Below the pieces are notes generated by a model. It ran no database searches, was not told the origin of the DNA, and worked only from the letters and a program-made list of their open reading frames with translations. The position numbers and the translations under genes were made by a program. Below, piece after piece: positions 2,395 through 21,250 of a DNA stretch of 24,000 bases (position 1 is its first letter; every line of letters begins with the position of its first letter). Source of the stretch: an uncultured Alphaproteobacteria bacterium (lineage in GTDB: Bacteria; Pseudomonadota; Alphaproteobacteria; ATCC43930; CGMCC-115725); assembly GCA_963810055.1 (NCBI GenBank), contig CAWEME010000008.1, positions 174,124 to 198,123 of the forward strand, in the 5' to 3' direction.

Positions 2395-3057
2395 ATGTCG
2401 CCTGGTAAGAAGCCGAGGATCAAAAAGCCACCTCCACCGCCCACGCCAAAAACGCCAAAGCCTTGGGACGTGCCACCTCAACCAAAAATCGGGGATTCTG
2501 ATCGTGAGATTACATATGCCGCTGTAGGACGTGCGCTTTCTCAGTGGGAGTTGTTTGAATCAAACTTATTACAGTTGTTCGTGGTTTTTGTCGGCTCCGG
2601 TCCGACGGCACTTCTAACCGCAGCTCGGGCCTATGGAACAATCCAAACGTTCCGCGGTCGCGCCGATATGATTGAGGGCGCCGCTGAGGTGTTCTTCCTA
2701 ATTTACAAAAACAGTGATTTAGAGAAGCGCATAAGCGACTTCATGGACATTGCCCGCAATTATGCGGCACGGAGAAATGAGATCGCTCACGGAATTGTTT
2801 GGACAACTCATTGGGCCGGGACACAGAAACAAGGGAGCGCACTTTTCCCGGCGCGATACGCGAGCAATAAAAACAAAATCGGCAGCTTCCCGCTGGGTGA
2901 AACAGGCGCCCAAGTGCCGACCCATGTCTATTCGTCTGCCGAAATTGGGATGTTTACGAGCCGGTTTTTGGAATTAACAAGTCAGGCGCACAAGATTTAT
3001 ATCCAGACGGCCCGTTTTCATTATGCAAGTGCCAATAAGGAGAAGCTTCCAACATAG
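2395..3057 (+). CDS. HEPN-motif protein (putative RNase / abortive-infection-like), Pro/Lys-rich N-terminus
   Basis: ARNYAARRNEIAHG contains R-N-x-x-x-H, the Rx4-6H HEPN signature with a polar residue after the Arg. The region before it looks helical. The N-terminal 30 aa are KKPPPPPTPKTPKP low complexity. ATG is preceded by GAAGGGA. Confidence 0.65.
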   Translation: MSPGKKPRIKKPPPPPTPKTPKPWDVPPQPKIGDSDREITYAAVGRALSQWELFESNLLQLFVVFVGSGPTALLTAARAYGTIQTFRGRADMIEGAAEVFFLIYKNSDLEKRISDFMDIARNYAARRNEIAHGIVWTTHWAGTQKQGSALFPARYASNKNKIGSFPLGETGAQVPTHVYSSAEIGMFTSRFLELTSQAHKIYIQTARFHYASANKEKLPT

Positions 3058-3193: not shown

Positions 3194-3766
3194 ATGCGCG
3201 ATCTTTTCGGATTTGGCACGGCAGCGCTTATAGCCTTGGCTTCCCTCGCGCTCCAGCCTTGGTCATTAGCTTGGTGGATCGGCATGGCACTTGCCGCGGC
3301 CCTCGTCGTTCTATCGGGGGGCGATTTGTTATACAGGCGCTTCCTGTCGTGGCAAGTACGGCAGCATTTAAAACCCGTGCGCCAAACCCCTATATGGAAA
3401 GCGGTCGCACATATACGGGACGCTATTAACGACACGAGCCACGGCGAGTGTTACCCCGAAACTCTCAAAGCCATCCGGCAAGCGGCGCTCGATGGCAAAA
3501 TAAAATTGCGGGGACGCCCAGAGATTAATACCGACGGCCCTCAAAAATTCAGCGACGTTAGTTCCGACATCCCGCCGGAATATTGGAGGGTTTCATTGAT
3601 CGGCGCGATGGCGACTGATGAGCGATGCTACGGCGTCGGCTATCCCCATACAAATCCCGAAACGGTTTACGCATGGGGACAAAAGGGGGTTTACGAAAAG
3701 AAGCGTTACTCCGATCTGACTGTGAACATGCAAGAAATCAAACGTGAATGGCCGTCTGAAACATGA
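3194..3766 (+). CDS. membrane protein, two N-terminal TM helices, uncharacterised soluble C-terminal domain
   Basis: Hydrophobic stretches FGFGTAALIALASLAL and SLAWWIGMALAAALVVLSGG. It sits directly downstream of the HEPN gene on the same strand. Confidence 0.6.
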   Translation: MRDLFGFGTAALIALASLALQPWSLAWWIGMALAAALVVLSGGDLLYRRFLSWQVRQHLKPVRQTPIWKAVAHIRDAINDTSHGECYPETLKAIRQAALDGKIKLRGRPEINTDGPQKFSDVSSDIPPEYWRVSLIGAMATDERCYGVGYPHTNPETVYAWGQKGVYEKKRYSDLTVNMQEIKREWPSET

Positions 3767-3857
3767 TGCATATATGCGACCGTGGTCGCTCCTCCCTAAA
3801 AGCCTTGCATTGTAGGCGTCTCCTTCCCATGTTATCGACGCCGCCATTAAGTAGAAT

Positions 3858-3944
3858 GGCAGGGTTGCAGAGCGGTCGATTGCGCTTCCCTGAAAAGGAA
3901 GTGAACTCGAAAGAGTTCCGAGGGTTCGAATCCCTCCCCTATTC
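3858..3944 (+). tRNA. class II (Ser-like, long variable arm) tRNA-like gene with anticodon GAA (Phe); non-canonical acceptor stem, no encoded CCA
   Basis: Hand fold. D arm is GCA-GAGCGGTCGAT-TGC, which includes G18G19. Anticodon arm is CTTCC-CTGAAAA-GGAAG (U33, GAA, A37). The 18-nt variable arm has a perfect stem GAACTC-GAAA-GAGTTC. T arm is GAGGG-TTCGAAT-CCCTC. The acceptor is GGCAGGG/CCCTATT (two G:U pairs and one C.A mismatch); an alternative is an 8-bp GAAT[GGC]AGGG/CCCTATTC stem starting at 3854 with a 3-nt bulge. An 11-bp terminator hairpin follows immediately. Confidence 0.55.
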
Positions 3945-3945
3945 C

Positions 3946-3985
3946 GAGGCCCGCTCCAGTTCGCCGTAGAGCGGGCCTCGCTTTT
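3946..3985 (+). terminator. rho-independent terminator immediately after the tRNA-like gene
   Basis: Perfect 11-bp stem GAGGCCCGCTC (3946-3956) / GAGCGGGCCTC (3969-3979), a 12-nt loop, then GCTTTT. Confidence 0.7.
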
Positions 3986-4054
3986 ACAGATTTTGTTGGT
4001 GCGAAAACCTATAGAGGATCGGCGCAACCATGCTCTTATTGAGGAGACAGCAGC

Positions 4055-4933
4055 GTGGATCAACGTGTGAAGGCCTTTCTTGCAAAGCGTCAGGCTTCCA
4101 ATCCCCGTGCCTTGGCCTATTACACCAGTCTTTGGGACGGGCATATGGCTGCCGGATTGGTGAACAATCATTTTGTGTCCGAGCTCACAAGCGGCTCTGA
4201 CCCCAAGTTTTTTCAACGAGTGTGGGAGATGCTCTTAGCCCGTCATTTGACCGCCTGCGGTCACGACATCACTTCCAGTCCAGAGGGCGAGCCTGACTTC
4301 TGCTTCGAACACGCGGGCGTCGTCGTATGGGTGGAAGCCGTTTCGCCCGAGCCTGGTCCCGATCTTTCTCGCAACCCTCCTACGACTGGAAGGAACGTTC
4401 CGCATAGAGAAACGCTTCTTCGTTGGACCACCGCTTTAGACGCAAAATGGAAGAAGGGTTCCGCTTATCGACGCGATGGTGTCGTCAAGCCGCAAGATGC
4501 ATATGTGATAGCAATTGATGGAAGCCAGCTAGGCTGGTTTCCCCTTGCGCACGGCCATTCTCGAATGCCATACCTCGTTGAGGCTACGTTTGCCATGGGA
4601 CCGCTGGCATTCGAGATTAACACAACGACTGGTGCATTTGTCGGGACTTCCCCCACGGTAAGTTTCTCCACTGCGAATAGAAATAATTCTCCAGTCCGAA
4701 CGGAACCCTTTTTCAATCGCAACTATTCCAACGTCAGTGCTGTTATTGGTTGTGTGCCGCCCATGTTTTGTGAGTCCATCCTGCCGATCCAAGTTGCTTA
4801 TAATCCGCTCGCAGATGTTTCCCTAAAGCCAGGCTGCTTTGGTCAGTCCGCCGAAGAATGGACAGCGGAATTGGTTGGTACTGATGCTGAGGGGCAAGAC
4901 TGGAAATTGAGGCGGCTCAATACTGTTGCATAA
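4055..4933 (+). CDS. hypothetical protein, weak PD-(D/E)xK nuclease-like pattern
   Basis: GTG start 8 nt after GAGGAGA. The segment GEPDFCFEHAGVVVWVEAVSP resembles the PD...E core of restriction-endonuclease-fold proteins, but no Lys follows. No other motif was recognised. Confidence 0.65.
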   Translation: MDQRVKAFLAKRQASNPRALAYYTSLWDGHMAAGLVNNHFVSELTSGSDPKFFQRVWEMLLARHLTACGHDITSSPEGEPDFCFEHAGVVVWVEAVSPEPGPDLSRNPPTTGRNVPHRETLLRWTTALDAKWKKGSAYRRDGVVKPQDAYVIAIDGSQLGWFPLAHGHSRMPYLVEATFAMGPLAFEINTTTGAFVGTSPTVSFSTANRNNSPVRTEPFFNRNYSNVSAVIGCVPPMFCESILPIQVAYNPLADVSLKPGCFGQSAEEWTAELVGTDAEGQDWKLRRLNTVA

Positions 4934-5071
4934 TTTAAGAATTTTGCACCAATTTTAGGCCGTTGAAAGAACGGGGCTTTTCTGGTGCAGAAATCCGGTG
5001 CAGAATCGCCGCATGATTTACGTCTATCCGCCGTCAGTTCGGGGGGCCTTGATCGCCAAGGGCAACGCCGC

Positions 5072-5863
5072 ATGAGCGGCCCCAATGCCAAAAAGCAGAG
5101 GGCCGGTTGGGAGACCCTCGACAGGCTGTTCGCCGAGGCTGCGAATGTCTGGGTCATCCACTACTCGTGCGAAAGTTTCTACGACCGGCCTAACGGCCGG
5201 TCGCCGAGAATTACGTCAATTGCAGTGCGCAAGCTCAACTCCGCGCAGACGCGCTCCTTCTCAATTCATCAGGTCGCTGAACGCCGTAATGTTCCATCCG
5301 ACGAGATCGAGGCGCACTACGACAGTCTTGAGCGAGAGATGCTGGACGCCTTCTACGATCATGTCCGCAGCTTCCAGGGAATGAAATATCTCCACTGGAA
5401 TATGCGAGACATCAATTTCGGATTCGCCGCCATCGAGCACCGCTACCGCGTGCTGGGCGGCGATCCGGCTGTCATCGAGGACGAAAGGAAGATCGACCTC
5501 TCCCGCTTGCTGATCGACATATTCGGGGTTGGCTATATCGGCCACCCTCGCCTTGAGAGCCTGTTGACTAAGAATTCTATCCGGCCTCTCGACTTCCTGA
5601 CTGGCGCTCAGGAGGCCGCAGCGTTCGACCAGAGGAATTTCGTCGGCTTGCATCAATCGACGCTGCGCAAGGTGGACGTGCTGGCGAATATCGCCGATCG
5701 TGCCCACAACCGACATCTCAAGACCAACACGACCTGGTGGGAAATGCACGGCGGCAGGGTTCGATCTGTATCCGTCTGGATTGCTGAAAACAGGTGGATT
5801 GCACTCGCGGCGAGCGTCGCCAGCATTATTGGTCTTTATTTTGTATTATGGCCAAGAAAGTAA
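5072..5863 (+). CDS. hypothetical protein with degenerate DEDD/RNase H-like exonuclease pattern and C-terminal TM anchor
   Basis: The ORF opens at GTG 4985, and ATG 5072 (MSGPNAKK...) is the more likely start. VIHYSCESF, YLHWNMRDINFGF and GLHQSTLRKVD are spaced like the ExoI/ExoII/ExoIII motifs of DnaQ-like exonucleases, but with non-canonical residues. The C-terminus WIALAASVASIIGLYFVLW is a TM helix. Confidence 0.65.
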   Translation: MSGPNAKKQRAGWETLDRLFAEAANVWVIHYSCESFYDRPNGRSPRITSIAVRKLNSAQTRSFSIHQVAERRNVPSDEIEAHYDSLEREMLDAFYDHVRSFQGMKYLHWNMRDINFGFAAIEHRYRVLGGDPAVIEDERKIDLSRLLIDIFGVGYIGHPRLESLLTKNSIRPLDFLTGAQEAAAFDQRNFVGLHQSTLRKVDVLANIADRAHNRHLKTNTTWWEMHGGRVRSVSVWIAENRWIALAASVASIIGLYFVLWPRK

Positions 5864-5875
5864 GCAGGCTACGGG

Positions 5876-7390
5876 GTGGAAATGGGCGGCACGGGCATCG
5901 AACAGAGAATGGCCATTCTCCGGAGCGCGGCCGATCAGCAGATCGTCAAGCCCTTTCGCACTCATGGGTGGGCGGCAGAGATTACTGAAGCTAAACAGGA
6001 CGGCGAATATCTCGTTATTAAGGCCGTAAAGGCCGACGTTACGCGATGTGTTGCGCTACTGTATTCCTCTGCCACCGATAACAAATATTACAAGAAACTT
6101 GATTCAGAAGTTGATCGTATATTCACTAACGGTGAATTGTATATGATTGAAAGCTTCGCTCACGGGTTGAAGAAGCCAGTTGTCCCTGTAGATCAATTTT
6201 TCCCCGTCCTCGTCGCATGGAATAAAGAATTACATCCTCAGACCAGGCGGCCTCCCGTGAAGCCGCGCCCATCAAGCATCCATTCAATCAAAGCCGAAAA
6301 TCCGCTTCTCAGCATTTGGAGTCGTCTCGACCAATTCGCAAGCACGCACTTAGCAGAGAAGCTCATTAGACGTCGCGCCAAAGAACAATCAATCGATATT
6401 TCTGACGAAAAAGTCACCAGTAAGGGGGCTGGCGTCGCGTTTGCACTTAGGAGTGCATCAGATTATTTCCGCTCAGTTCCGTTCGAGAGCCTGAATAAGA
6501 GAATTATTAGCATCTATTACGGCGGGCTTGTACTGTCCTTCGCAGAAATGCTTGCCTCTCCAACTGGTCCCGCCGATCTGGATGAGATTGAAGGGTACAC
6601 CAAGGTTGGGCATGGATTTTATACGTTCGGCACCGAGTCAAGAGGTTTCAGCGAACTCGTCGTGGGTGTCTTGGCAACGGGATTCCTACCGCGTTGGGCG
6701 GACTTTCTCGAACATGACGTACGTAGCTATCCAAAAGAGAAGGCAAAATCCGAAGAAGGGGTGTCAAAGCTTCCGCGCGATACATTCTGCACGCTCCGGA
6801 AGCTGCTATCCGCAGTTCCGGAGATTTCCGACCTATTCTCAGAAGCATTTGATAGTGAGCCATCTTGGATCATGCCGGTGCTGGACGTGGAAGCAAACAG
6901 TCCACGCTCGTTTATCCGCCAACCGGTGCTGAACAGTACTTACATCAAGCTCATAGATCGGTCGGGTCAGATCGCACAGACAAGACTTGAAAGCGCTGGA
7001 TGGCCCATTGCCGAGATTTCACAGGACAGTGATAGGCGAAATGGCCAAATATTCCGCGCACGTGTAGATCATCCGGAAAGCAATCACTGGTCTGAAGCTC
7101 TACCGATTCATCGTAGCCCATTTGAAAATAGCGGTGCATTGATATTGCCTCCCTTGAGTGATTTGTACGAATACCGTGTCGTCGCCATGGCCGTACTCTA
7201 TGCTTTGTCGATCTTGGTTCGTTATATGCCGCGCACATGGAGGCGTGTGGAGGGCGGAGACCTCGATCAACATCTTGCGCTTGTCAAAACGACGATCGGG
7301 GTGTTCGAGCGCATCCTTCCTCAGGAATTCCTAGAAGCGATCACCGGAGAGCGCGTTATCGCGACCCAACCCGGAGGGCTTTTCAACTGA
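5876..7390 (+). CDS. hypothetical 504-aa protein (possibly YaaC-like C-terminal region)
   Basis: Long ORF beginning 13 nt after the previous stop (GTG 5876 or ATG 5882). The C-terminal YRVVAMAVLYALSILVRYMPRTWRRVEGGD recalls the ...LS.L.RY.P..W... segment of YaaC-family proteins. This comes from memory only and was not verified. Confidence 0.7.
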   Translation: MEMGGTGIEQRMAILRSAADQQIVKPFRTHGWAAEITEAKQDGEYLVIKAVKADVTRCVALLYSSATDNKYYKKLDSEVDRIFTNGELYMIESFAHGLKKPVVPVDQFFPVLVAWNKELHPQTRRPPVKPRPSSIHSIKAENPLLSIWSRLDQFASTHLAEKLIRRRAKEQSIDISDEKVTSKGAGVAFALRSASDYFRSVPFESLNKRIISIYYGGLVLSFAEMLASPTGPADLDEIEGYTKVGHGFYTFGTESRGFSELVVGVLATGFLPRWADFLEHDVRSYPKEKAKSEEGVSKLPRDTFCTLRKLLSAVPEISDLFSEAFDSEPSWIMPVLDVEANSPRSFIRQPVLNSTYIKLIDRSGQIAQTRLESAGWPIAEISQDSDRRNGQIFRARVDHPESNHWSEALPIHRSPFENSGALILPPLSDLYEYRVVAMAVLYALSILVRYMPRTWRRVEGGDLDQHLALVKTTIGVFERILPQEFLEAITGERVIATQPGGLFN

Positions 7391-7454: not shown

Positions 7455-7898
7455 ATGACCGATACGCGCACCCCCGAGCAGCGCCGTGCCATCATGCAGG
7501 CAGTGCGAGGGAAAGACACCGGCCCCGAGATGATCGTGCGGCGACTCGTCCACGGTATGGGTTACCGCTATCGCCTTCACGTTGCTGGCTTGCCTGGCCG
7601 ACCCGACCTCGTGTTCCCGAGTCGCCGCAAAGTGGTATTCGTGCATGGGTGCTTTTGGCACGGCCACGGATGCCGCTATGGACAGCTCCCCAAGTCCAGG
7701 CTTAACTTCTGGACGGCCAAAATCGGGCGCAATCGGCGCCGCGACCGCACCCTTGTAACCGCCCTCAAAAAACAAGGCTGGGCCGTCCTCATCGTCTGGC
7801 AATGCAAGACGCGGCAACTCGATCAACTCGGACCTTTACGGCAACAACTCGCAAAATTCTTGTCCGTTTCCCCACAATCCCGATCTACATCCGCCTAG
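7455..7898 (+). CDS. vsr: very-short-patch repair endonuclease (Vsr)
   Basis: RRAIMQAVRGKDTGPEMIVRRLVHGMGYRYRLH...LPGRPDLVFPSRRKVVFVHGCFWHGH...NFWTAKIGRNRRRD matches the Vsr family signatures (PE..R, DhVF, FV.GCFWH.H, FW..K...N..RD). It lies immediately upstream of a C5-MTase. Confidence 0.9.
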   Translation: MTDTRTPEQRRAIMQAVRGKDTGPEMIVRRLVHGMGYRYRLHVAGLPGRPDLVFPSRRKVVFVHGCFWHGHGCRYGQLPKSRLNFWTAKIGRNRRRDRTLVTALKKQGWAVLIVWQCKTRQLDQLGPLRQQLAKFLSVSPQSRSTSA

Positions 7899-7937
7899 CT
7901 ATCCGTTAGGATTCCCGAATCAGTGAGGATGGGCTGG

Positions 7938-9275
7938 ATGACCAAGCGACCGATCGGGATCGATCTTTTTGCCGGAGCGGGAGGAATGAGCCTCGGCTTC
8001 GAGCAGGCGGGTTTCGACGTGGTTGCCGCCGTCGAGATCGATCCCGTGCATTGCGCTGTCCACAAATTCAATTTTCCCAAAACGGCCGTGCTGCCCCGAT
8101 CGGTAGTCGGCCTGAAAGCCGCCGACATCCGCATTGCGGCTGGCATCGGTCGAAGCCCGATCGATTGCGTATTCGGCGGGCCCCCCTGTCAAGGATTCTC
8201 GTTGATCGGCCATCGCGCGCTCGAAGACCCGCGCAACAGCCTTGTGCTCGAATTCGTGCGCCTGGTAGCTGAACTCGACGCCCGCACCTTCGTATTCGAG
8301 AATGTCAAAGGACTTACCTTAGGGAAACACAAACCGTTCTTAGACGAGCTGGTCGCCGCCTTCCATCGAGCCGGTTACACAGTGCGGTTGCCGTGGCACG
8401 TTTTGAATGCCGATCGCTACGCCGTTCCGCAGCACCGCGAGCGATTGATCCTGTTCGGCGCAAAAAAGGGCGAGAATATTCCGAACTACCCCGTTCCTCT
8501 CGTGAATCCGATTGACGATCGGAAATCTATCCCCGGCTTGCCGATCGGTCCGAGTTGCATTGCGGCGCTAGCCGATCTTCCCGACGCCGATCGCTTCGAC
8601 ACGCTTATCGAAACGGACGCCGTTCGCACGACTTCATTCCGCACGCCGTCACCCTACGCCGCCGAATTTAGGTGCCTTACGAACGATGCGTGGCACCGTG
8701 GTTACGTTAGAAATTGGAATCCAGCCGTTTTGACTTCCAGCGCCCGCACGAGCCACACCGCCATTTCGCGCCGTCGATTCGAAGAAACGACGCCCGGCAA
8801 GGTCGAGCCTATCAGCCGCTTTTTCAAACTTTCGCCCGGCGGCTTGTCGAACACTTTACGCGCTGGAACCGACGGAGCGCGCGGCGCGTTCACCAGCCCG
8901 CGCCCCATCCATTACAAATACCCCCGTTGCATCACCGTGCGCGAAATGGCCCGGCTCCATGGCTTTCCCGATTGGTTCAGATTCCACGCGACCAAATGGC
9001 ACGGCGCGCGACAGATCGGCAATGCCGTTCCGCCGCCACTCGCAAGAGCGATCGCCGGCGCCGTCGCAAAGGCGCTGCGAATCCGCCCGTCGCGTCCCTC
9101 TCGTGTCGTCGATCTTGGGGATGTGGCCTTGCTGTATATGGAAATGTCAGCGGCGGCAGAGCACTTCGGCGTCGAACCTCCGAACGGCCGCCGTGATCGC
9201 AAAAGCGGTGCGCGCAAGCGCAAACAGCACGAGATCGAGGAAACGCGCCGCCGCTTGAGGATCGTCTATGCCTAA
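7938..9275 (+). CDS. dcm: DNA (cytosine-5)-methyltransferase
   Basis: Motif I IDLFAGAGGMSLGF, motif IV GGPPCQGFS, motif VI FVFENVKGL, motif VIII QHRERLILFG, motif IX ITVREMARLHGFPDWFRF, motif X RQIGNAVPPPLA. The ORF opens at GTG 7923; ATG 7938, preceded by GAGGA, is the preferred start. Confidence 0.95.
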   Translation: MTKRPIGIDLFAGAGGMSLGFEQAGFDVVAAVEIDPVHCAVHKFNFPKTAVLPRSVVGLKAADIRIAAGIGRSPIDCVFGGPPCQGFSLIGHRALEDPRNSLVLEFVRLVAELDARTFVFENVKGLTLGKHKPFLDELVAAFHRAGYTVRLPWHVLNADRYAVPQHRERLILFGAKKGENIPNYPVPLVNPIDDRKSIPGLPIGPSCIAALADLPDADRFDTLIETDAVRTTSFRTPSPYAAEFRCLTNDAWHRGYVRNWNPAVLTSSARTSHTAISRRRFEETTPGKVEPISRFFKLSPGGLSNTLRAGTDGARGAFTSPRPIHYKYPRCITVREMARLHGFPDWFRFHATKWHGARQIGNAVPPPLARAIAGAVAKALRIRPSRPSRVVDLGDVALLYMEMSAAAEHFGVEPPNGRRDRKSGARKRKQHEIEETRRRLRIVYA

Positions 9276-10080
9276 GAAACCACACGCCCTCAATCGCTAC
9301 GAGTCTCTTATCGAGAAGATATTTTTCGACCATTACAAGAAAGGCGCCACCCAATTCGAATTCGATCGAGAGGAGCTGATCGCCGCCGCTGCTGCATTGG
9401 GCTTCGATACCGTCAAGAATGTCGGCGATGTGATCTACACCTTTCGTTATCGGAAAAGTCTTCCCGACAAGATTCTTGCCACTCAACCGGAAAACAAGCA
9501 CTGGCTCATTCTCGGCGCCGGCGATGCGCGCTACCGATTCCGTCTCAGCAACCTCGCCTATATTCACCCGACGCAAGGGCTGATCGTTCGCAAAATTCCG
9601 GACTCAACGCCGGAAATCATCGAGCGTTACGCCTTCACGGACGAACAGGCGTTGCTAGCAAAGATTCGTTACAATCGCCTGATCGACATTTTTCTTGGGA
9701 TCACGGCGTATTCTCTCCAAAACCATCTTCGCACCAACATCGCCAATTACGGACAAATCGAGATTGACGAACTTTATGTCGGGGTAGACGCACGCGCCGC
9801 TCAGTACGTTGTGCCGGTTCAGGCCAAGGGCGGTAAAGATGTGATCGGCGTTATCCAAACGATCCAAGATACCGTTTTTTGCGAGGCCGAAACCCGTTAC
9901 GCTAACTCTATCCCGCGTCCCGTGTCCGCTCAATTCATGGAGAACGATACTATTGCCCTGTTCGAATTGCATTTCGACGGCGACGACGTTTCGATCATTC
10001 AAGAGCGCCATTACAGGCTCACGGAATCCAAGGACATCACCGGCAAAGACCTAAAGGCGTATCGCAAGAATAAGGTCTAA
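9268..10080 (+). CDS. putative type II restriction endonuclease (cognate to the C5-MTase)
   Basis: The start overlaps the MTase stop by 8 nt (ATGCCTAA), implying translational coupling. EIDELYVGVD...YVVPVQAKGGKD fits a PD-(D/E)xK D...QxK core. Specificity is unknown. Confidence 0.6.
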   Translation: MPKKPHALNRYESLIEKIFFDHYKKGATQFEFDREELIAAAAALGFDTVKNVGDVIYTFRYRKSLPDKILATQPENKHWLILGAGDARYRFRLSNLAYIHPTQGLIVRKIPDSTPEIIERYAFTDEQALLAKIRYNRLIDIFLGITAYSLQNHLRTNIANYGQIEIDELYVGVDARAAQYVVPVQAKGGKDVIGVIQTIQDTVFCEAETRYANSIPRPVSAQFMENDTIALFELHFDGDDVSIIQERHYRLTESKDITGKDLKAYRKNKV

Positions 10081-15415: not shown

Positions 15416-16564
15416 CTAGGACCCGAGAGCTTTTCCCAGGCTTCCGGCCACTTGCGCAGCGGCGTCCCTAACAGGCTTATCCGCCAAATGCGCATAGCGC
15501 ATTGTCGTCTGTATCTGGGTATGGCCGAGAAGCCGGCCGACAACCACGATATTCACGCCCTGCATGACCGCATTCGAAGCGTAGGTATGGCGTAGATCAT
15601 GAATTCTAACGTGTTCGAGGCTGGCCTTCTTGCGGATGCGTTGCCAAGGCGGCTGAATATCGGTCGCATGCTGGCCAGGCACATGGCCCGCGATGACATA
15701 TTCATTGTCCGGCAGGCGGGGCAGGGCAGCGAGTACCTTGGCGGCCTCCTCGGGCAGGGGAATACGGCGCGGTCCGGTCTTCGAATCGGGCAGCTTTATG
15801 TAGCCGTCGCTGATATAGGACCATTTCAGGGTTTGGATTTCCCTCAGGCGGCAGCCGGTCAAAATGAGAAGTTGAATTGCCGCAATCGCATAAGGAGATT
15901 CGGAACCATCGGCGCCCGCTTCATTGAGTGCCTGCCCCAATCGTGTTAGCTCTTCCGTGCTTAGGAAGGTCTCGCGCTTGCGTTCGGGAAATTTTTTGAT
16001 GTGTCGGCAGGGATTGGAGCCGTCCGGCCGTAAGCCCCACACCTCGCACAGGTTGAACAGCTTGGAAAGCACACCCAAGGTCCGGTTGGCCTGATAAGGT
16101 TTTAGGCGCATTTGGTGATGGAGCTGCGCCATATCGGCGCGGGTCACGTCAACCACCTTAAATGGCCCAATCGCCGGATTGATGAACAGGTCGATAGACC
16201 GGCGATATTCGCGTTGCGTGTTCGGCTTGCAATGTTCGAGCACATGATCGCGGTAGAAGCGCTCGCACATCGTGGCGACAGTGACTGACCTACGGTGATC
16301 GTGAATCTCCTGGGCCGGATTTTGGCCGTGAGCAACAGCGCCGAGAAGTTCTTTAGCGCGCTTCCGCGCTTGCTCGGCGGTTAGAATGCCGTGCCGGCCG
16401 ATCTTGACCCGGCGCGTGCGTCCGCCGCTGCGATATTGGACGAGATAGGTCTTCTTGCCGCTCGGCCAGACACGCAAGCCGAAGCCCTTCACTTCATCAT
16501 CGAATATGATAAGCTCGCGTGTCTCTGGTGATATGGCTTCGACGCTACGCTTGGTAAGTTTCAT
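15416..16564 (-). CDS. int: tyrosine-type site-specific integrase (P4-like, DUF4102-type N-terminal arm-binding domain)
   Basis: The N-terminus FDDEVKGFGLRVWPSGKKTYLVQYRSGGRTRRVKIG is the DUF4102 pattern. Catalytic residues are in TGCRLREI, HDLRHTYAS and LLGHTQIQTTMRYAHL (R...HxxR...Y). Confidence 0.95.
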   Translation of the reverse strand: MKLTKRSVEAISPETRELIIFDDEVKGFGLRVWPSGKKTYLVQYRSGGRTRRVKIGRHGILTAEQARKRAKELLGAVAHGQNPAQEIHDHRRSVTVATMCERFYRDHVLEHCKPNTQREYRRSIDLFINPAIGPFKVVDVTRADMAQLHHQMRLKPYQANRTLGVLSKLFNLCEVWGLRPDGSNPCRHIKKFPERKRETFLSTEELTRLGQALNEAGADGSESPYAIAAIQLLILTGCRLREIQTLKWSYISDGYIKLPDSKTGPRRIPLPEEAAKVLAALPRLPDNEYVIAGHVPGQHATDIQPPWQRIRKKASLEHVRIHDLRHTYASNAVMQGVNIVVVGRLLGHTQIQTTMRYAHLADKPVRDAAAQVAGSLGKALGS

Positions 16565-16732: not shown

Positions 16733-16779
16733 CTCATAACCTGAAGGTCGGAGGTTCAAATCCTCCCCCCGCAACCACC
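16733..16779 (+). repeat. attR of GI-1: displaced 3' part of tRNA-fMet (47-bp perfect direct repeat of 479-525)
   Basis: Character-by-character identity with 479-525. It lacks the 5' half of the tRNA, so it is not a gene. Confidence 0.9.
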
Positions 16780-18392
16780 GAGAGTCTAACTCCGGTTAGG
16801 TCTTTGTTCTTCTTCCCTACCAGCATCAGGATACCTGCCAGGTCACCGTGCAGCGTGGCCGGGATCTCGCCGCGTTTGGGGCCTGGCAGGAGGCTCACTT
16901 TGCTCACCAGTGAGCGTATGAGCTCAGCCGCCTCGCGGGCCGCCTCCGGGTCTTCCAGTGCCGCCGAGAGGTGCTCGATCTTGGCACGGTAGACCTCGGC
17001 CATGTTCGGGTGAACATCCGGGAAGTCCTGTGGGGCATTGGCCAGCCTGAAACTGGCTTCGGCCTTTTCCCGTTCCAATTTGCCGAGGCGATCGAGCAGG
17101 GCAGGGGATTTACCCCCGTCTACGATGATATCAACGGCCTTCTCGATTTGCCTTTCTACCCGCTCCAATGTTCGTTTATCGGCTTCGGCGGCTGCCCGCC
17201 GCTCGTGATTGAGCCGATTGGTTTCCTCTTGGAAGTCGCGGACTGCTTTCTCGGCGGCTTGCGGCGTGACAAGAATAGCCTTCAAGCCGTCGAATATGCG
17301 TTTTTCGATTACGTCACGTTTGACCGTGTGCCCGTTCTTGCAGGCCCCACGCCGGAAATGATTGGCGCAGCCATAGCGGTCGTTTTGAATGACCACGTAA
17401 TTGCCGCCGCACATGCCGCAACTGAGCAGCCCAGAGAACAGGAAGCGCTTGCGATGTTGCCCATTGAGGCGGTTCGCGAAGCTCTCCCGCACTGCCTGGA
17501 TGCTCTCTTGGAACTCTATGGCAAGCGCGGCCTGGCGGCTCTTTGCGGCTTCCCAAGCCGAATCCTGGACAATCCGCAACTCCGACACGTCCTGAATGAT
17601 CCACTCAGATTTCGCGTTGATTCGGGAGATTCGCTTGCCGGTATCCGGATTCTTGACGTAGCGCAGCCGGTTCCAGACCAGCTTGCCGATATAGAGCTCG
17701 TTATTGAGGATGCCCGTGCCGCGCGAGGCGTGGCCGCGAATGGTGGTATCCATCCAGGCTCCGCCATGCGGGCCGGGAACATGTTGGGTGTTTAAGTCGC
17801 GGGCAATGGCGCGCGGCGATTTGCCAACGGCGAATTCGCGGAAAATGCGGCGGACGATTTTGGCTTCGTCTTCGTTGATGGTGCGGTCACCCCGGATCGG
17901 CTCGCCCTTGGCGTCCAGTTTCGTGACGGGGCGATAGCCGTAGCAAAGCCCGCCGCCGGATTTTCCTTGTTCGACCCGCCCTCGAATCCCGCGCCGCGTC
18001 TTGTCGGCCAAATCCTTGAGGAAAAGGGCGTTCATGGTGCCCTTCAATCCAACATGAAGGTGGGTAATTTCGCCTTCGGACAGGGTGACAATCTTGATGC
18101 CGGCGAAGCTCAGCCGCTTGAAAACCCCGGCCACGTCCTCCTGGTCGCGGCTGATGCGGTCCAGGGCCTCGGCAAGCACCATGTCAAACAGGCCCCGCGA
18201 GGCGTCCGTAAGGAGCGCCTGGATTCCTGGCCGGATAAGGCTAGCTCCGGATTTGGCGCGGTCATTGTAGCCTTCAACCACGTGCCATCCCTGCTTTTTG
18301 GCGTATTCGCGGCAAAGCCGAAGCTGGTCCTCGATTGAGGCGTCCCGCTGATTGTCCGAGGAATAACGGGCATAGAGCGCAACACGGATCAT
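16734..18392 (-). CDS. large serine recombinase (resolvase/invertase N-domain, recombinase domain, zinc ribbon, coiled coil)
   Basis: MIRVALYARYSSDNQ carries the catalytic Ser motif. Also present are LAEALDRISRD, the zinc ribbon CGMCGGNY...YGCANHFRRGACKN and a long helical C-terminus. Preferred start is ATG 18392, 8 nt after GGAGG (the ORF opens at 18410). The last 16-18 codons (..VVAGGGFEPPTFRL) are read from the antisense of the tRNA-derived repeat. Confidence 0.9.
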   Translation of the reverse strand: MIRVALYARYSSDNQRDASIEDQLRLCREYAKKQGWHVVEGYNDRAKSGASLIRPGIQALLTDASRGLFDMVLAEALDRISRDQEDVAGVFKRLSFAGIKIVTLSEGEITHLHVGLKGTMNALFLKDLADKTRRGIRGRVEQGKSGGGLCYGYRPVTKLDAKGEPIRGDRTINEDEAKIVRRIFREFAVGKSPRAIARDLNTQHVPGPHGGAWMDTTIRGHASRGTGILNNELYIGKLVWNRLRYVKNPDTGKRISRINAKSEWIIQDVSELRIVQDSAWEAAKSRQAALAIEFQESIQAVRESFANRLNGQHRKRFLFSGLLSCGMCGGNYVVIQNDRYGCANHFRRGACKNGHTVKRDVIEKRIFDGLKAILVTPQAAEKAVRDFQEETNRLNHERRAAAEADKRTLERVERQIEKAVDIIVDGGKSPALLDRLGKLEREKAEASFRLANAPQDFPDVHPNMAEVYRAKIEHLSAALEDPEAAREAAELIRSLVSKVSLLPGPKRGEIPATLHGDLAGILMLVGKKNKDLTGVRLSVVAGGGFEPPTFRL

Positions 18393-18416
18393 GGATTTAG
18401 CCTCCAACAAACCAGC

Positions 18417-18842
18417 TTACTCTTTTGTCCAGGGGTCCAGAATGGATTTCAGCGAGGTCTTGAAATCCGAGACGTTATGGGTCACGAGCGTCAGATCATG
18501 GACTTCGGCAGTCGCGGCAATGAAGGCGTCCATCGCTTCAATAGGCCTGCCGGCGGCCTCACACCGTGCGAAAATCTTCCCACAAGCATCCGCAACTGTG
18601 CCGTCAACCGGTAAGATTCGATCTTCGAAACGCAACGGTAGCTCCTCCCGCAACCATTCATCGAGTTGTTTCCGCTTTACGCCAGCGGGCAGCCGCTCGA
18701 TCCCGTAGCGAAGCTCCGCCAATGTCACGGCGCTAATGAACACGCGGTCTTCATCTACCCCCTCCGTCCAGGTGATTAGGCCTGGATTGGGTTGCGGCTT
18801 GACCCACTCTGAAACCGCGTTGGTATCGAGCAGGAAGGTCAC
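18417..18842 (-). CDS. vapC: PIN-domain toxin VapC (type II TA)
   Basis: The N-terminus LLDTNAVSE carries the first acidic residue. The conserved ISAVTLAELRYG and DAFIAATAEVHDLTLVTHNVSDF segments are present. There is a 4-nt overlap with the upstream antitoxin gene. Confidence 0.9.
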   Translation of the reverse strand: MTFLLDTNAVSEWVKPQPNPGLITWTEGVDEDRVFISAVTLAELRYGIERLPAGVKRKQLDEWLREELPLRFEDRILPVDGTVADACGKIFARCEAAGRPIEAMDAFIAATAEVHDLTLVTHNVSDFKTSLKSILDPWTKE

Positions 18843-19093
18843 AACTCGACCTTACGCAGACGGCCTTTGATGCGCTTGATTTTCAGCCCGGAGCCGCGAA
18901 GCGGGGAACTGGCGAAGAACTCGGCCAGATTGCCGACTCGCTTGGTCTTCCGCTGCCATTCCTCGGCCGCCACAACCACCACGGCGCTGCGGCCGTGCTT
19001 GGTGATGGTCTGCGGCCCTCGGGATTTGGCCTGGTCAATGACTTCGCTGAATTTCGCCTTGGCTTCCGCGACGGTCCAGGTACCTGTGTTCAT
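18839..19093 (-). CDS. Phd/YefM-type antitoxin partner of VapC
   Basis: WTVAEAKAKFSEVIDQAKSRGPQTITKHGRSAVVVVAAEEWQR is the classic Phd/YefM N-terminal pattern. It overlaps vapC by ATGA-type coupling. Confidence 0.85.
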   Translation of the reverse strand: MNTGTWTVAEAKAKFSEVIDQAKSRGPQTITKHGRSAVVVVAAEEWQRKTKRVGNLAEFFASSPLRGSGLKIKRIKGRLRKVEL

Positions 19094-19820: not shown

Positions 19821-20885
19821 TTATCCAGTAGCGACTGGAGTCTGGCGGTTTTCAACCTGCATATTCGGAGCGACGGGCCAAGGCGCGGAGCCCTCGATCA
19901 GCGCAGCGCCTTGACCTTGTTGCGGTGAGAATTTGGCGGCATAAGCGGCTGGCGTCAGCCAGCCGATGCGAGAATGAGGCCGAACGGTGTTATAGTCGCG
20001 CCGCCATTCTTCGAGGGCGGCACGCGCCTGGGCGAGCGAGGTGAACAGGGTCTCGTTCAAGAACTCGTCGCGCAGCCGGCCATTGAAGCTCTCGATGAAG
20101 GCGTTCTGGATCGGCTTGCCCGGATCGATGTAGTGCCAATCGACGCCCGTTTGCGCCGTCCAGGTCAGAATGGCATTGCTGGTCAGTTCCGTGCCGTTGT
20201 CGCTGCCGACCGTCTTGGGTTTGCCGTGGGCCGCGATGAGAAGATCGAGTTCGCGGGCCACCCGCTTGCCCGAGAGCGAGAAGTCTGCGATCGCGACCAG
20301 GCATTGCCGGGTGCAAACGTCATAGATCGCCAGAATGCGGAAGCGGCGACCGGAGTCAAGTTGATCGGACACGAAGTCGAGCACCCACAAGTCGTGCGGC
20401 AGCGCCGGGACCGGCATGGGCGTTCTTGTTCCCAAAGCCCTTTTGCGACCGCCCCGTTTGCGCACCATGAGCCGTTCCTCGCGATAGATGCGGAATAGCC
20501 GTTTGTGGTTCACGACAAAGCCCTCCCGGCGAAGGAAGATGAGCAAGCGGCGGTAGCCGAAGCGGCGGCGTTCCCGGGCCAAGGTCACAAGCCGCTCGCG
20601 CAGCCTGGGATCGTCGGGCCGCCGGGAGTGGTAGCGGATCGTCATCCGCACGCAGCCGATCACTTGGCACGCCCGCCGCTCGCTCATCTCATGGGCCGCC
20701 TTGAGATGGGCGACAGCTTCTCGCTTCACGGCGGGCGTTACCATTTTTTTGACAGTAAATCCTTCAAGCCCGCGTTGTCGAGCATGGCGTCGGCCAACAG
20801 CCGCTTCAGCTTCGAGTTCTCCGTCTCCAGCGCCTTCAGCCGCTTGGCTTCGGACACGTCCATGCCGCCGAACTTGCTCTTCCAA
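19821..20885 (-). CDS. IS3-family transposase OrfB (DDE), expressed as OrfAB by -1 frameshift at A7 (20744-20750)
   Basis: The DDE integrase core is present: WVLDFV..., [32 protein letters not shown]. OrfA ends TCA AAA AAA TGG TAA, and a -1 slip gives [11 protein letters not shown]..., the OrfB frame. Confidence 0.9.
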
Positions 20886-21210: not shown

Positions 21211-21250
21211 GTTTGACTCTCGGTGGTTGCGAGCCCCCGCAACCACTTTT
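21211..21250 (+). repeat. attR of Element 2: inverted-repeat arm, 13-bp tRNA-end core and T-tract (also folds as a 9-bp hairpin)
   Basis: In gtttgactctcGGTGGTTGCGagccccCGCAACCACtttt, the arm 21211-21231 is 20/21 the reverse complement of 16770-16790, and the core 21234-21246 equals 512-524 of the tRNA. Confidence 0.6.

Follow-up and report, generated by a model that had tools for sequence, protein, structure and literature searches.

A gene with the body of a serine transfer RNA (tRNA) and the anticodon of a phenylalanine tRNA raises the question of whether it encodes a translating tRNA or a molecule of another kind. Such a gene lies within positions 3858-3985 of a 24,000-nucleotide (nt) stretch of DNA from an uncultured Alphaproteobacteria bacterium (contig CAWEME010000008.1; this whole stretch is called the window, and coordinates without a locus label refer to it). 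An initial annotation, made from the letters of the window, had folded the locus by hand into a Ser-type class II tRNA with the Phe anticodon GAA, and had proposed that it inserts Ser at Phe codons, serves as an RNA partner of a neighbouring protein or is a relic of a tRNA attachment site. We find that the gene is one member of a family whose acceptor end departs from that of a tRNA in a conserved manner, and that the bases missing from this end are present in its leader. Judged from these sequence comparisons, the RNA as encoded is probably not an ordinary chargeable tRNA.

Both ARAGORN and Rfam call the gene a tRNA, as the hand-made fold had predicted. ARAGORN reports a tRNA with anticodon GAA ("tRNA-Phe") at 3858-3945(+), one of two tRNAs in the window (the other is tRNA-fMet at 447-523), and the Rfam tRNA model RF00005 matches 3858-3944 with 43.0 bits (gathering score 29, E = 3e-6); a permissive Rfam scan of 3760-4010 gives nothing credible besides this model. 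The arms are as initially described. The 5' acceptor strand GGCAGGG and the bases TT are followed by a D arm GCA/GAGCGGTCGAT/TGC, a G, an anticodon arm CTTCC-CTGAAAA-GGAAG with the anticodon GAA at 3892-3894, an 18-nt variable arm T-GAACTC-GAAA-GAGTTC-C, a T arm GAGGG-TTCGAAT-CCCTC and the 3' end CCCTATT and C, and no CCA is encoded after the 3' strand, whereas the host tRNA-fMet does encode it. The anticodon loop is canonical, with U33, A37 and an A36-A37-A38 run. ARAGORN, Rfam, RNAalifold, covariation and a covariance model search all support the tRNA-like body of positions 1-69 (3858..3940, +), which comprises the 5' acceptor strand, the D arm, the anticodon arm, the Ser-type variable arm, the T arm and the 3' strand CCCT (66-69), and the gene region folds better than 200 of 200 shuffles (z = -3.2). 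Its class II layout is that of the Sinorhizobium meliloti tRNA-Ser(GCU), with a Ser-type D arm and a variable stem that has one unpaired base on each side, and the body is 77% identical to the Sinorhizobium tRNA-Ser(GCU). The anticodon is not that of a tRNA-Ser (NGA or GCU), and the body is not that of a tRNA-Phe (class I, short variable loop), so that the gene is Phe in its anticodon only.

The gene appears to be transcribed on its own, as the initial annotation had argued. Directly 3' of it stands an intrinsic terminator (3945..3985, +) with a 12-bp G+C-rich stem, a 12-nt loop and CTTTT; the hairpin CGAGGCCCGCTC...GAGCGGGCCTCG confirms the terminator described earlier, except that its stem is 12 bp and not a perfect 11 bp. 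Upstream, a TTGCAT box at 3805..3810 (+) is the putative -35 element, its TTG being invariant in five aligned alphaproteobacterial homologues, and an A/T-rich hexamer 18-19 nt past it (ATGTTA or TGTTAT, 3829..3835, +) is the putative -10 element. A TTGnnn box lies 16-19 nt ahead of a -10-like hexamer in most family members, and the terminator stem GCCCGCTC/GAGCGGGC is conserved in the alphaproteobacterial and many of the metagenomic homologues. Positions 3805-3985 of the window would thus be a self-contained small-RNA gene, with a predicted sigma-70-like promoter, a leader of about 18 nt, an 86-nt tRNA-shaped body and an intrinsic terminator.

The family to which the gene belongs is widespread on phages, plasmids and islands and apparently undescribed; a literature search for a prior description found none, with incomplete coverage that leaves the novelty unproven. 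About 30 non-redundant relatives come from alphaproteobacterial islands and plasmids, Escherichia coli lambdoid prophages and metagenomes. By blastn, a copy on the Methylobacterium nodulans plasmid pMNOD01 is 77% identical, terminator included, and is also class II with anticodon GAA. A genome scan with a pattern that fixed the Ser-type D arm and CTGAAAA found class II genes in Rhizomicrobium, Robiginitomaculum, Mycoplana, Bacteroidota, Chthoniobacterales and Holophagales, and its matches are uninformative on anticodon preference because this pattern forces GAA. Scans of viral contigs and metagenomes in which the T arm and the odd 3' end CCCTATT served as anchors and any anticodon was allowed gave 25 distinct sequences, 20 of them with GAU (13) or GAA (7), and otherwise UAG, CAA, CAU and GCG once each and one decayed copy. 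The comparison with allo-tRNAs made in the initial annotation is therefore apt, since relatives with Ile, Leu, Met/Ile and Arg anticodons use the same Ser-type body. The GAU form is found in 11 of 5,426 complete E. coli genomes, where PGAP labels it tRNA-Ile; its site there is the nin region of a lambdoid prophage, with the replication genes on one side and the Q antiterminator on the other, and it occupies the strand opposite to its neighbours.

The fold is maintained across these relatives. On 25 non-redundant members RNAalifold recovers the cloverleaf with double compensatory changes at 18 of 23 pairs. When the full cloverleaf is imposed, 94.1% of the cells are paired, against 68.9% in shuffled alignments and 39-50% with the partners slid, and the covariation score is 0.669, against 0.17 and at most 0.12, respectively. 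The compensatory changes, among them those in the anticodon, variable and T stems, preserve every internal stem in about 25 relatives, in agreement with the initial view that the structure is being kept up and is not in decay. With a covariance model derived from the family, ordinary tRNA-Ser genes reach 87-93 bits and members 77-102 bits, equally high values that show the body to be simply that of tRNA-Ser; this model was rejected as a classifier, since it fails to separate the family from true tRNA-Ser. What distinguishes the family is its anticodon, its positions 70-73 and its leader.

The anticodon changes on a nearly constant body. Of 91 nt, 5 distinguish member L051 (GAU) from member L029 (UAG), namely positions 34, 36 and 37 and one compensatory variable-stem pair, and members L062 (GAA) and L068 (GAU) have their leader in common. 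Position 37 follows the anticodon, with A37 beside GAA and GAU and G37 beside UAG. Selection acts on the fold and on the anticodon, the latter being the variable module.

The acceptor end is where the family leaves the tRNA plan. In the window, a linear reading gives G1.U72, G2.U71 and C3xA70, then four Watson-Crick pairs, with C73 in the discriminator position; the ATT(C) after position 69 (3941..3944, +) forms no Watson-Crick pairs with G1G2C3. The oddity of GGCAGGG/CCCTATT, with two G:U pairs and a C.A mismatch, was thus correctly seen at the outset, and it recurs throughout the family: RNAalifold keeps the acceptor pairs 4-7:66-69 only, and of 25 diverged members 24 have G.U at 1:72, none has a Watson-Crick pair at 2:71 and 10 leave 3:70 unpaired. 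The two strands come in two main layouts, one with 5' GGAGGGN and 3' NCCCTATT and one, that of the window, with 5' GGCAGGG and 3' CCCTATT, and a further group, from Alphaproteobacteria, is built alike with 5' GGAC... and 3' ...GATT. Past the last paired base the 3' strand always reads A-U-U and then enters the terminator. The odd acceptor is a conserved feature and not a product of decay. The other fold that had been offered for this end, an 8-bp GAATAGGG/CCCTATTC helix interrupted by a GGC bulge, can be formed in the window but is not conserved, relatives keeping no more than 2-3 outer A-U pairs (GAAT/ATTC).

The acceptor traits typical of a serine tRNA are missing from this end. The Ser acceptor identity elements are G2:C71 and G73, and both are absent in all 25 members, in 24 of which 1:72 is G.U, so that Ser insertion is in doubt for the linear reading. 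Instead of a 7-bp acceptor stem with a free discriminator and CCA, the sequence as encoded offers four conserved pairs. Four Bacteroidota members (L016:4474-4559, L023:268-353, L024:2349-2434 and L019:2640-2725) are a mirror image of this arrangement: their 3' strand is intact through G73 and their 5' strand is without positions 1-3. In these loci (C)GGA past a strong downstream hairpin pairs with UCC(G) at 70-73, and an upstream hairpin competes for positions 4-7.

The bases that the acceptor end lacks are found ahead of the body. The motif GCC-G-CCA at 3840..3846 (+), which lies outside the coordinates of the initial annotation and was missed by it, is followed by the 11-nt linker TTAAGTAGAAT (3847..3857, +), which has U at position -1. 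Its GCC is complementary to G1G2C3, and the motif as a whole is what would be expected at positions 70-76 of a normal tRNA with 5' GGC, that is, the complement of positions 1-3, a discriminator and CCA; only if it takes that place would G2:C71 and G73 be restored. This motif changes the kind of molecule that the gene encodes. GCCGCCA is present in the leader of 6 of 6 GGCAGGG-type members, 5-11 nt ahead of G1 and separated from it by a linker of unconserved sequence, and the leaders around it share only 13-16 of 45 positions between members whose bodies are 83-93% identical. The GGA-type members carry TCC-G-CCA, TCC-A-CCA or TCC-T-CCA instead, so that the motif appears to track positions 1-3. 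Defined as the reverse complement of positions 1-3 followed by any base and CCA, it occurs in 13 of 29 leaders, compared to a mean of 0.3 and a maximum of 3 in 2000 trials with shuffled leaders. U at position -1 is shared by 19 of the 29 members.

The position of the motif is also regular. The -10-like box of the window ends 4-5 nt ahead of GCCGCCA, and in 17 of 19 non-enteric members the triplet starts 3-6 nt past the best -10-like hexamer, which places it at or next to the predicted transcript start. In the window, the RNAfold structure joins the leader to U-1/G1-C3, and in most of these members to U-1/G1-G2-N3, right beside the 4-bp acceptor helix. TCC-TTAC-GGA stands at the predicted 5' end of the M. 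nodulans copy, and several other members keep TCC alone. The sequence GTTCCTCCAC upstream of three homologues was considered as the Shine-Dalgarno sequence of a divergent gene and rejected, as no conserved open reading frame (ORF) follows it; it is now read as TCC-T-CCA.

Our favoured reading is that the gene specifies a tRNA look-alike which is circularly permuted and capped at its acceptor, and which exerts its effect by way of the anticodon arm. Of this, the architecture is fairly secure, and we rate the architecture and this class of function, taken jointly, at slightly less than an even chance. In this reading the RNA descends from tRNA-Ser and keeps the full L-shape and a 7-nt anticodon loop that reads Phe codons. 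Its 3' strand gives four pairs (66-69) and then departs as AUU and the terminator. The transcript start would supply the three terminal pairs between G1G2C3 and the first triplet of GCC-G-CCA, and the acceptor tip would then be closed by a loop running from the would-be CCA end to G1, with the chain break inside the stem. Because no free 3' end would be available at the acceptor tip, the RNA as transcribed would be unchargeable without further processing. Its most likely function would be that of an uncharged tRNA mimic, used by mobile elements via its anticodon arm. Possible targets would be the ribosome, at Phe codons, or enzymes and toxins that read the anticodon loops of tRNA-Phe, tRNA-Ile or tRNA-Leu or that read damaged acceptor stems.

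Several observations weigh against this reading. In a thermodynamic test by constrained folding, pairing of G1G2 with the leader is found in 16 of 28 real leaders, compared to 15.6 expected from shuffled leaders; folding energy is not used as evidence for the cap, since it does not discriminate real from shuffled leaders. The co-variation of GCC and UCC is essentially one evolutionary event with a few supporting lineages, the N-CCA part is absent in 16 of 29 members, and the enterobacterial type offers a 5'-terminal CC only, followed by a CUUG hairpin. A cap helix of 3 bp is marginal without stacking, and RNase P could open the cap at G1. The promoter boxes are placed with an uncertainty of 1-2 nt, and a promoter consensus scan did not pick them out, the -35-like box at 3805..3810 included. 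Finally, the tracking of the anticodon by position 37 is the behaviour of a real decoder and fits a translating tRNA at least equally well.

This last point leads to the explanation that survives best among the alternatives, a conventional missense tRNA of the kind proposed at the outset, which we consider unlikely. RNase P would cut at G1, the trailer would be trimmed to position 73, CCA would be added, and seryl-tRNA synthetase (SerRS) would charge the RNA via its long variable arm, so that Ser is inserted at UUC/UUU; the weak acceptor end would just lower the activity to a tolerable level. A body that the covariance model cannot tell from tRNA-Ser, the canonical anticodon loop, position 37 and the common U at -1 are all consistent with this, and allo-tRNAs provide a precedent (PMC5389517). 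However, in the type-B members, which include the window, positions 1-3 face AUU, leaving two G.U pairs, a C.A mismatch and four stable pairs, the Ser identity elements of the acceptor are missing throughout, and the conserved leader motif is left without a role. Wilusz reportedly described in 2011 that an acceptor stem which is destabilised and starts with GG, as here, marks an RNA for CCACCA tagging and decay. Toxicity would also be expected if Phe-to-Ser and Ile-to-Ser substitution were constitutive.

A bolder combination of ideas, which we regard as quite unlikely, would make these the first bacterial circularly permuted tRNA genes. Each would encode a latent missense tRNA with Ser identity and a Phe, Ile or Leu anticodon, split at 69/70, which becomes chargeable and poisons the proteome only after a ligase or a repair activity joins its 5' end to position 69; or the RNA would stay capped and mimic a nicked tRNA, thereby jamming ribosomes, tRNases or tRNA-damage sensors. 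In both cases the anticodon, swapped between close relatives, would be the specificity module.

The narrower claim of a true permuted gene is improbable. Here the AUU-terminator flap would be removed and position 69 ligated to the 5'-terminal GCC by a host ligase (e.g. RtcB) or a phage ligase, and RNase P and 3' trimming would open the loop, giving a perfect GGCAGGG...CCCUGCC-G-CCA acceptor with full Ser identity and a Phe anticodon, so that a toxic missense tRNA is kept latent until an RNA-repair activity appears. In its favour, the leaders of the 13 motif-bearing members hold exactly positions 70-72, a discriminator (G in the window) and CCA, joining would restore G1:C72, G2:C71 and G73, and the predicted transcript start abuts the break. 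Algae and one archaeon do have permuted tRNA genes that mature via circles (PMC3978253, PMC3218864), and E. coli RtcB circularises an engineered permuted tRNA (PMC10159003). However, the primary transcript would have a 5' triphosphate and a long 3' flap, neither of them ligase-ready, and the bulge-helix-bulge motif is absent. We know of no bacterial pathway that matures a permuted tRNA by ligation. More than half of the leaders (16 of 29) are without the CCA, the enterobacterial type gives an unclean junction, and no ligase gene is linked to the family in the flanks of the member loci.

A partnership in which the RNA serves as antidote, decoy or substrate for the putative defence genes nearby (2395-3057 and 4055-7390), as suggested earlier for the HEPN-like neighbour, is very improbable. 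The gene does sit between the 2395-3057 ORF and the 4055-7390 operon, and ORF 4055-4933 of that operon has weak PADLOC matches to PD-T7-5 and PD-T7-1 (E about 1e-5). However, none of the 16 window proteins tested has a homologue beside any family member, and the flanking proteins differ between members, with a weak integrase match in L025 as the sole exception; pMNOD01, the closest relative with gene context, has unrelated neighbours, and a strong terminator separates the gene from the downstream operon. The conserved unit consists of promoter, RNA and terminator only, and this unconserved linkage appears to have largely refuted the partner hypothesis. A decaying tRNA-Ser pseudogene or former attachment-site relic, which the imperfect acceptor stem, the absent CCA and the location on an integrative island might suggest, is hardly credible, since compensatory changes keep the full-length fold across phyla, promoter spacing and terminator are conserved, no 11-mer of the gene recurs in the window except its own terminator arms, the repeats of the island come from tRNA-fMet, and the E. 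coli copy lies inside a prophage.

The acceptor-capped look-alike can be placed among known RNAs, and by analogy the family appears closest to allo-tRNAs in logic and to YrlA or permuted pre-tRNAs in topology. Allo-tRNAs combine a Ser-type long variable arm with many non-Ser anticodons, occur sporadically and often near toxin-antitoxin or mobile-element genes, and some of them have destabilised stems and are suspected to be non-translating (Mukai et al. 2017, PMC5389517). The present family resembles them in its Ser-type body with GAA, GAU, UAG, CAA, CAU or GCG and in its sporadic distribution on mobile elements. Allo-tRNAs, however, have an 8/4 or 9/3 acceptor/T-stem geometry and open acceptor ends, whereas this family is 7/5 by spacing with a covarying 5-bp T stem, its 3' acceptor strand ends after position 69 or 70 with the missing bases in the leader, and GAU and GAA dominate its anticodons. 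Because the 8/4 and 9/3 geometries were tested and do not apply, we do not count it among the allo-tRNAs.

In the permuted tRNA genes of Cyanidioschyzon and other algae and of one archaeon, a 3' segment is followed by an intervening loop to G1 and then the 5' segment (PMC3978253, PMC3218864). The gene order, with GCC-G-CCA upstream of G1 in the window, and the initially closed acceptor stem would be the same here, which makes the family a candidate, and not an established member, of this class. The algal and archaeal breaks, in contrast, lie in loops at a bulge-helix-bulge junction and are processed by a splicing endonuclease and a ligase, whereas here the break is inside the acceptor stem and 2-3 pairs (7 nt with N-CCA) are displaced. 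None of these algal and archaeal features is known from bacteria.

YrlA, a bacterial Y RNA, mimics a tRNA: it forms tRNA-type tertiary contacts and has a closed-loop acceptor stem, and its authors liken it to a permuted tRNA (10.1101/312249). It is a bacterial example of a closed-acceptor tRNA mimic, but it has no anticodon loop, it is fused to a Ro-binding stem, and its gene adjoins rsr. This family, in contrast, possesses the whole anticodon arm together with a class II variable arm, its neighbours are not constant, and the window ORFs scanned contain no Rsr/Ro-type domain; the full anticodon arm and the absent rsr link argue against an assignment to YrlA. A two-piece permuted transfer-messenger RNA (tmRNA) in Alphaproteobacteria, with its CCA end looped to G1 in the precursor, is said to have been described by Keiler, Shapiro and Williams in 2000. 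It would be a bacterial precedent for a permuted gene, and the window is likewise alphaproteobacterial, but the pieces of this tmRNA are held by long helices and it is alanylated, whereas the displaced piece here would be only about 7 nt.

Nicked tRNAs offer a further comparison. CdiA-CT toxins cleave tRNA-Ile in its 3' acceptor strand, at 70/71 or 71/72 (PMC9071432), and an engineered permuted "nicked" tRNA binds RtcR (PMC10159003). The break of the family at 69/70 or 70/71 is near the toxin cut, and GAU is its commonest anticodon, which we take as a lead and not as evidence. The body here, however, is that of tRNA-Ser and not of tRNA-Ile, and the ends would carry a triphosphate and a flap. 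We found no link of the family to nicked-tRNA or CdiA-CT systems.

Some individual loci deserve separate mention. L017:4085-4215 (Holophagales metagenome-assembled genome (MAG) VXZQ01000007) is class II with GAA and has a fully paired acceptor, GGCGGCG/CGTCGCC, a variable arm with a 7-bp stem and a 19-nt loop, and a leader-trailer helix GGAGAG/CTCTC that lengthens the acceptor stem; ARAGORN missed it, and the family covariance model gives it 75 bits. L026 (a Chthoniobacterales MAG) and L067 (a metagenome contig) are otherwise diverged and have a common 12-mer, TTGATTAAATTC, directly after the gene, where it replaces an obvious terminator hairpin. The genome-scan match L014:1730-1818 (Methyloceanibacter marginalis) was excluded as an ordinary tRNA-Ser(UGA) with a 6-nt anticodon loop; it encodes CCA, its loop is CTGAAA vs CTTGAAA, ARAGORN gives it a 2-nt anticodon, and the short loop could reflect a faulty assembly or a genuine variant of the frameshift type. 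A search of viral contigs with the D arm only (GCAGAGCGGTCGATTGCGC) was dropped as unspecific, as its matches were only ordinary phage tRNA-Tyr and tRNA-Ser genes.

The surroundings of the relatives are varied. In enterobacterial prophages the cassette lies in mosaic accessory regions with DNA methyltransferases of the N6_N4 and D12 classes (L039:1912-2964, L027:3654-4424, L028:2368-5051), the accessory region of L028 also holds an AAA_15/AAA_21 ATPase, and in one E. coli genome a methyltransferase dependent on S-adenosylmethionine replaces the right-hand neighbour of the cassette. A comparison with empty sites to define the cassette borders in E. coli prophages was abandoned because the region is too mosaic. 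The pMNOD01 copy lies about 450 nt from the gene of an NYN-domain protein (a predicted RNase; L001:6527-7141) on the opposite strand, among insertion sequence (IS) elements and a recombinase; no equivalent of the NYN-domain protein turned up near the window copy, nor in any other member locus included in the BLAST comparison.

In the window, the gene is cargo of a 16-kb integrative island at tRNA-fMet and lies about 3.3 kb from its left end, as the tRNA-fMet repeats and a tyrosine integrase frame this element. The window starts with 5S ribosomal RNA (rRNA) and tRNA-fMet, and the replicons nearest to this region are those of Rhizobium, Shinella and Phyllobacterium. The 3' 47 nt of tRNA-fMet (479-525, from the anticodon loop through CCA) are repeated at 16733-16779, and its last ~13 nt are present again at 21234-21246, so that two integrative elements stand in tandem at tRNA-fMet (447-525). 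Island 1 is about 16.2 kb long and has the tyrosine integrase (15416-16564) at its end. Island 2 carries a serine recombinase (16734-18410), a PIN toxin (18417-18842) and an IS3-type transposase (19821-20885), and the small ORF 18839-19093 beside the toxin may be its antitoxin.

Other genes of island 1 may serve in defence. ORF 2395-3057 contains RRNEIAHG, an R-x4-H motif of the HEPN kind, and has no Pfam, NCBIfam or PADLOC matches. The operon downstream of the tRNA-like gene has three genes (4055-4933, 4985-5863 and 5876-7390), the last of which is YaaC-like, and this operon may form a defence system not described before. It is followed at 7455-10080 by a complete type II restriction-modification cassette that includes a repair partner and consists of Vsr (7455-7898), a Dcm-type C5 methylase (7923-9275) and a type II restriction enzyme (9268-10080; PADLOC REase_II, E = 4e-123).

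Annotation pipelines file genes of this family as ordinary tRNA-Phe or tRNA-Ile. If the architecture proposed here is true, phages, plasmids and islands of several phyla would carry a portable promoter-to-terminator cassette for a Ser-tRNA-shaped RNA whose anticodon is exchanged among Phe, Ile and Leu and whose acceptor end is deliberately disabled or rearranged. Such an RNA would be a natural bacterial counterpart to permuted tRNA genes and engineered nicked-tRNA mimics, and it would call for caution in the inference of codon usage and genetic codes from the tRNAs of prophages. It would also be a new candidate player in the conflicts between mobile elements and their hosts over translation and tRNA cleavage.

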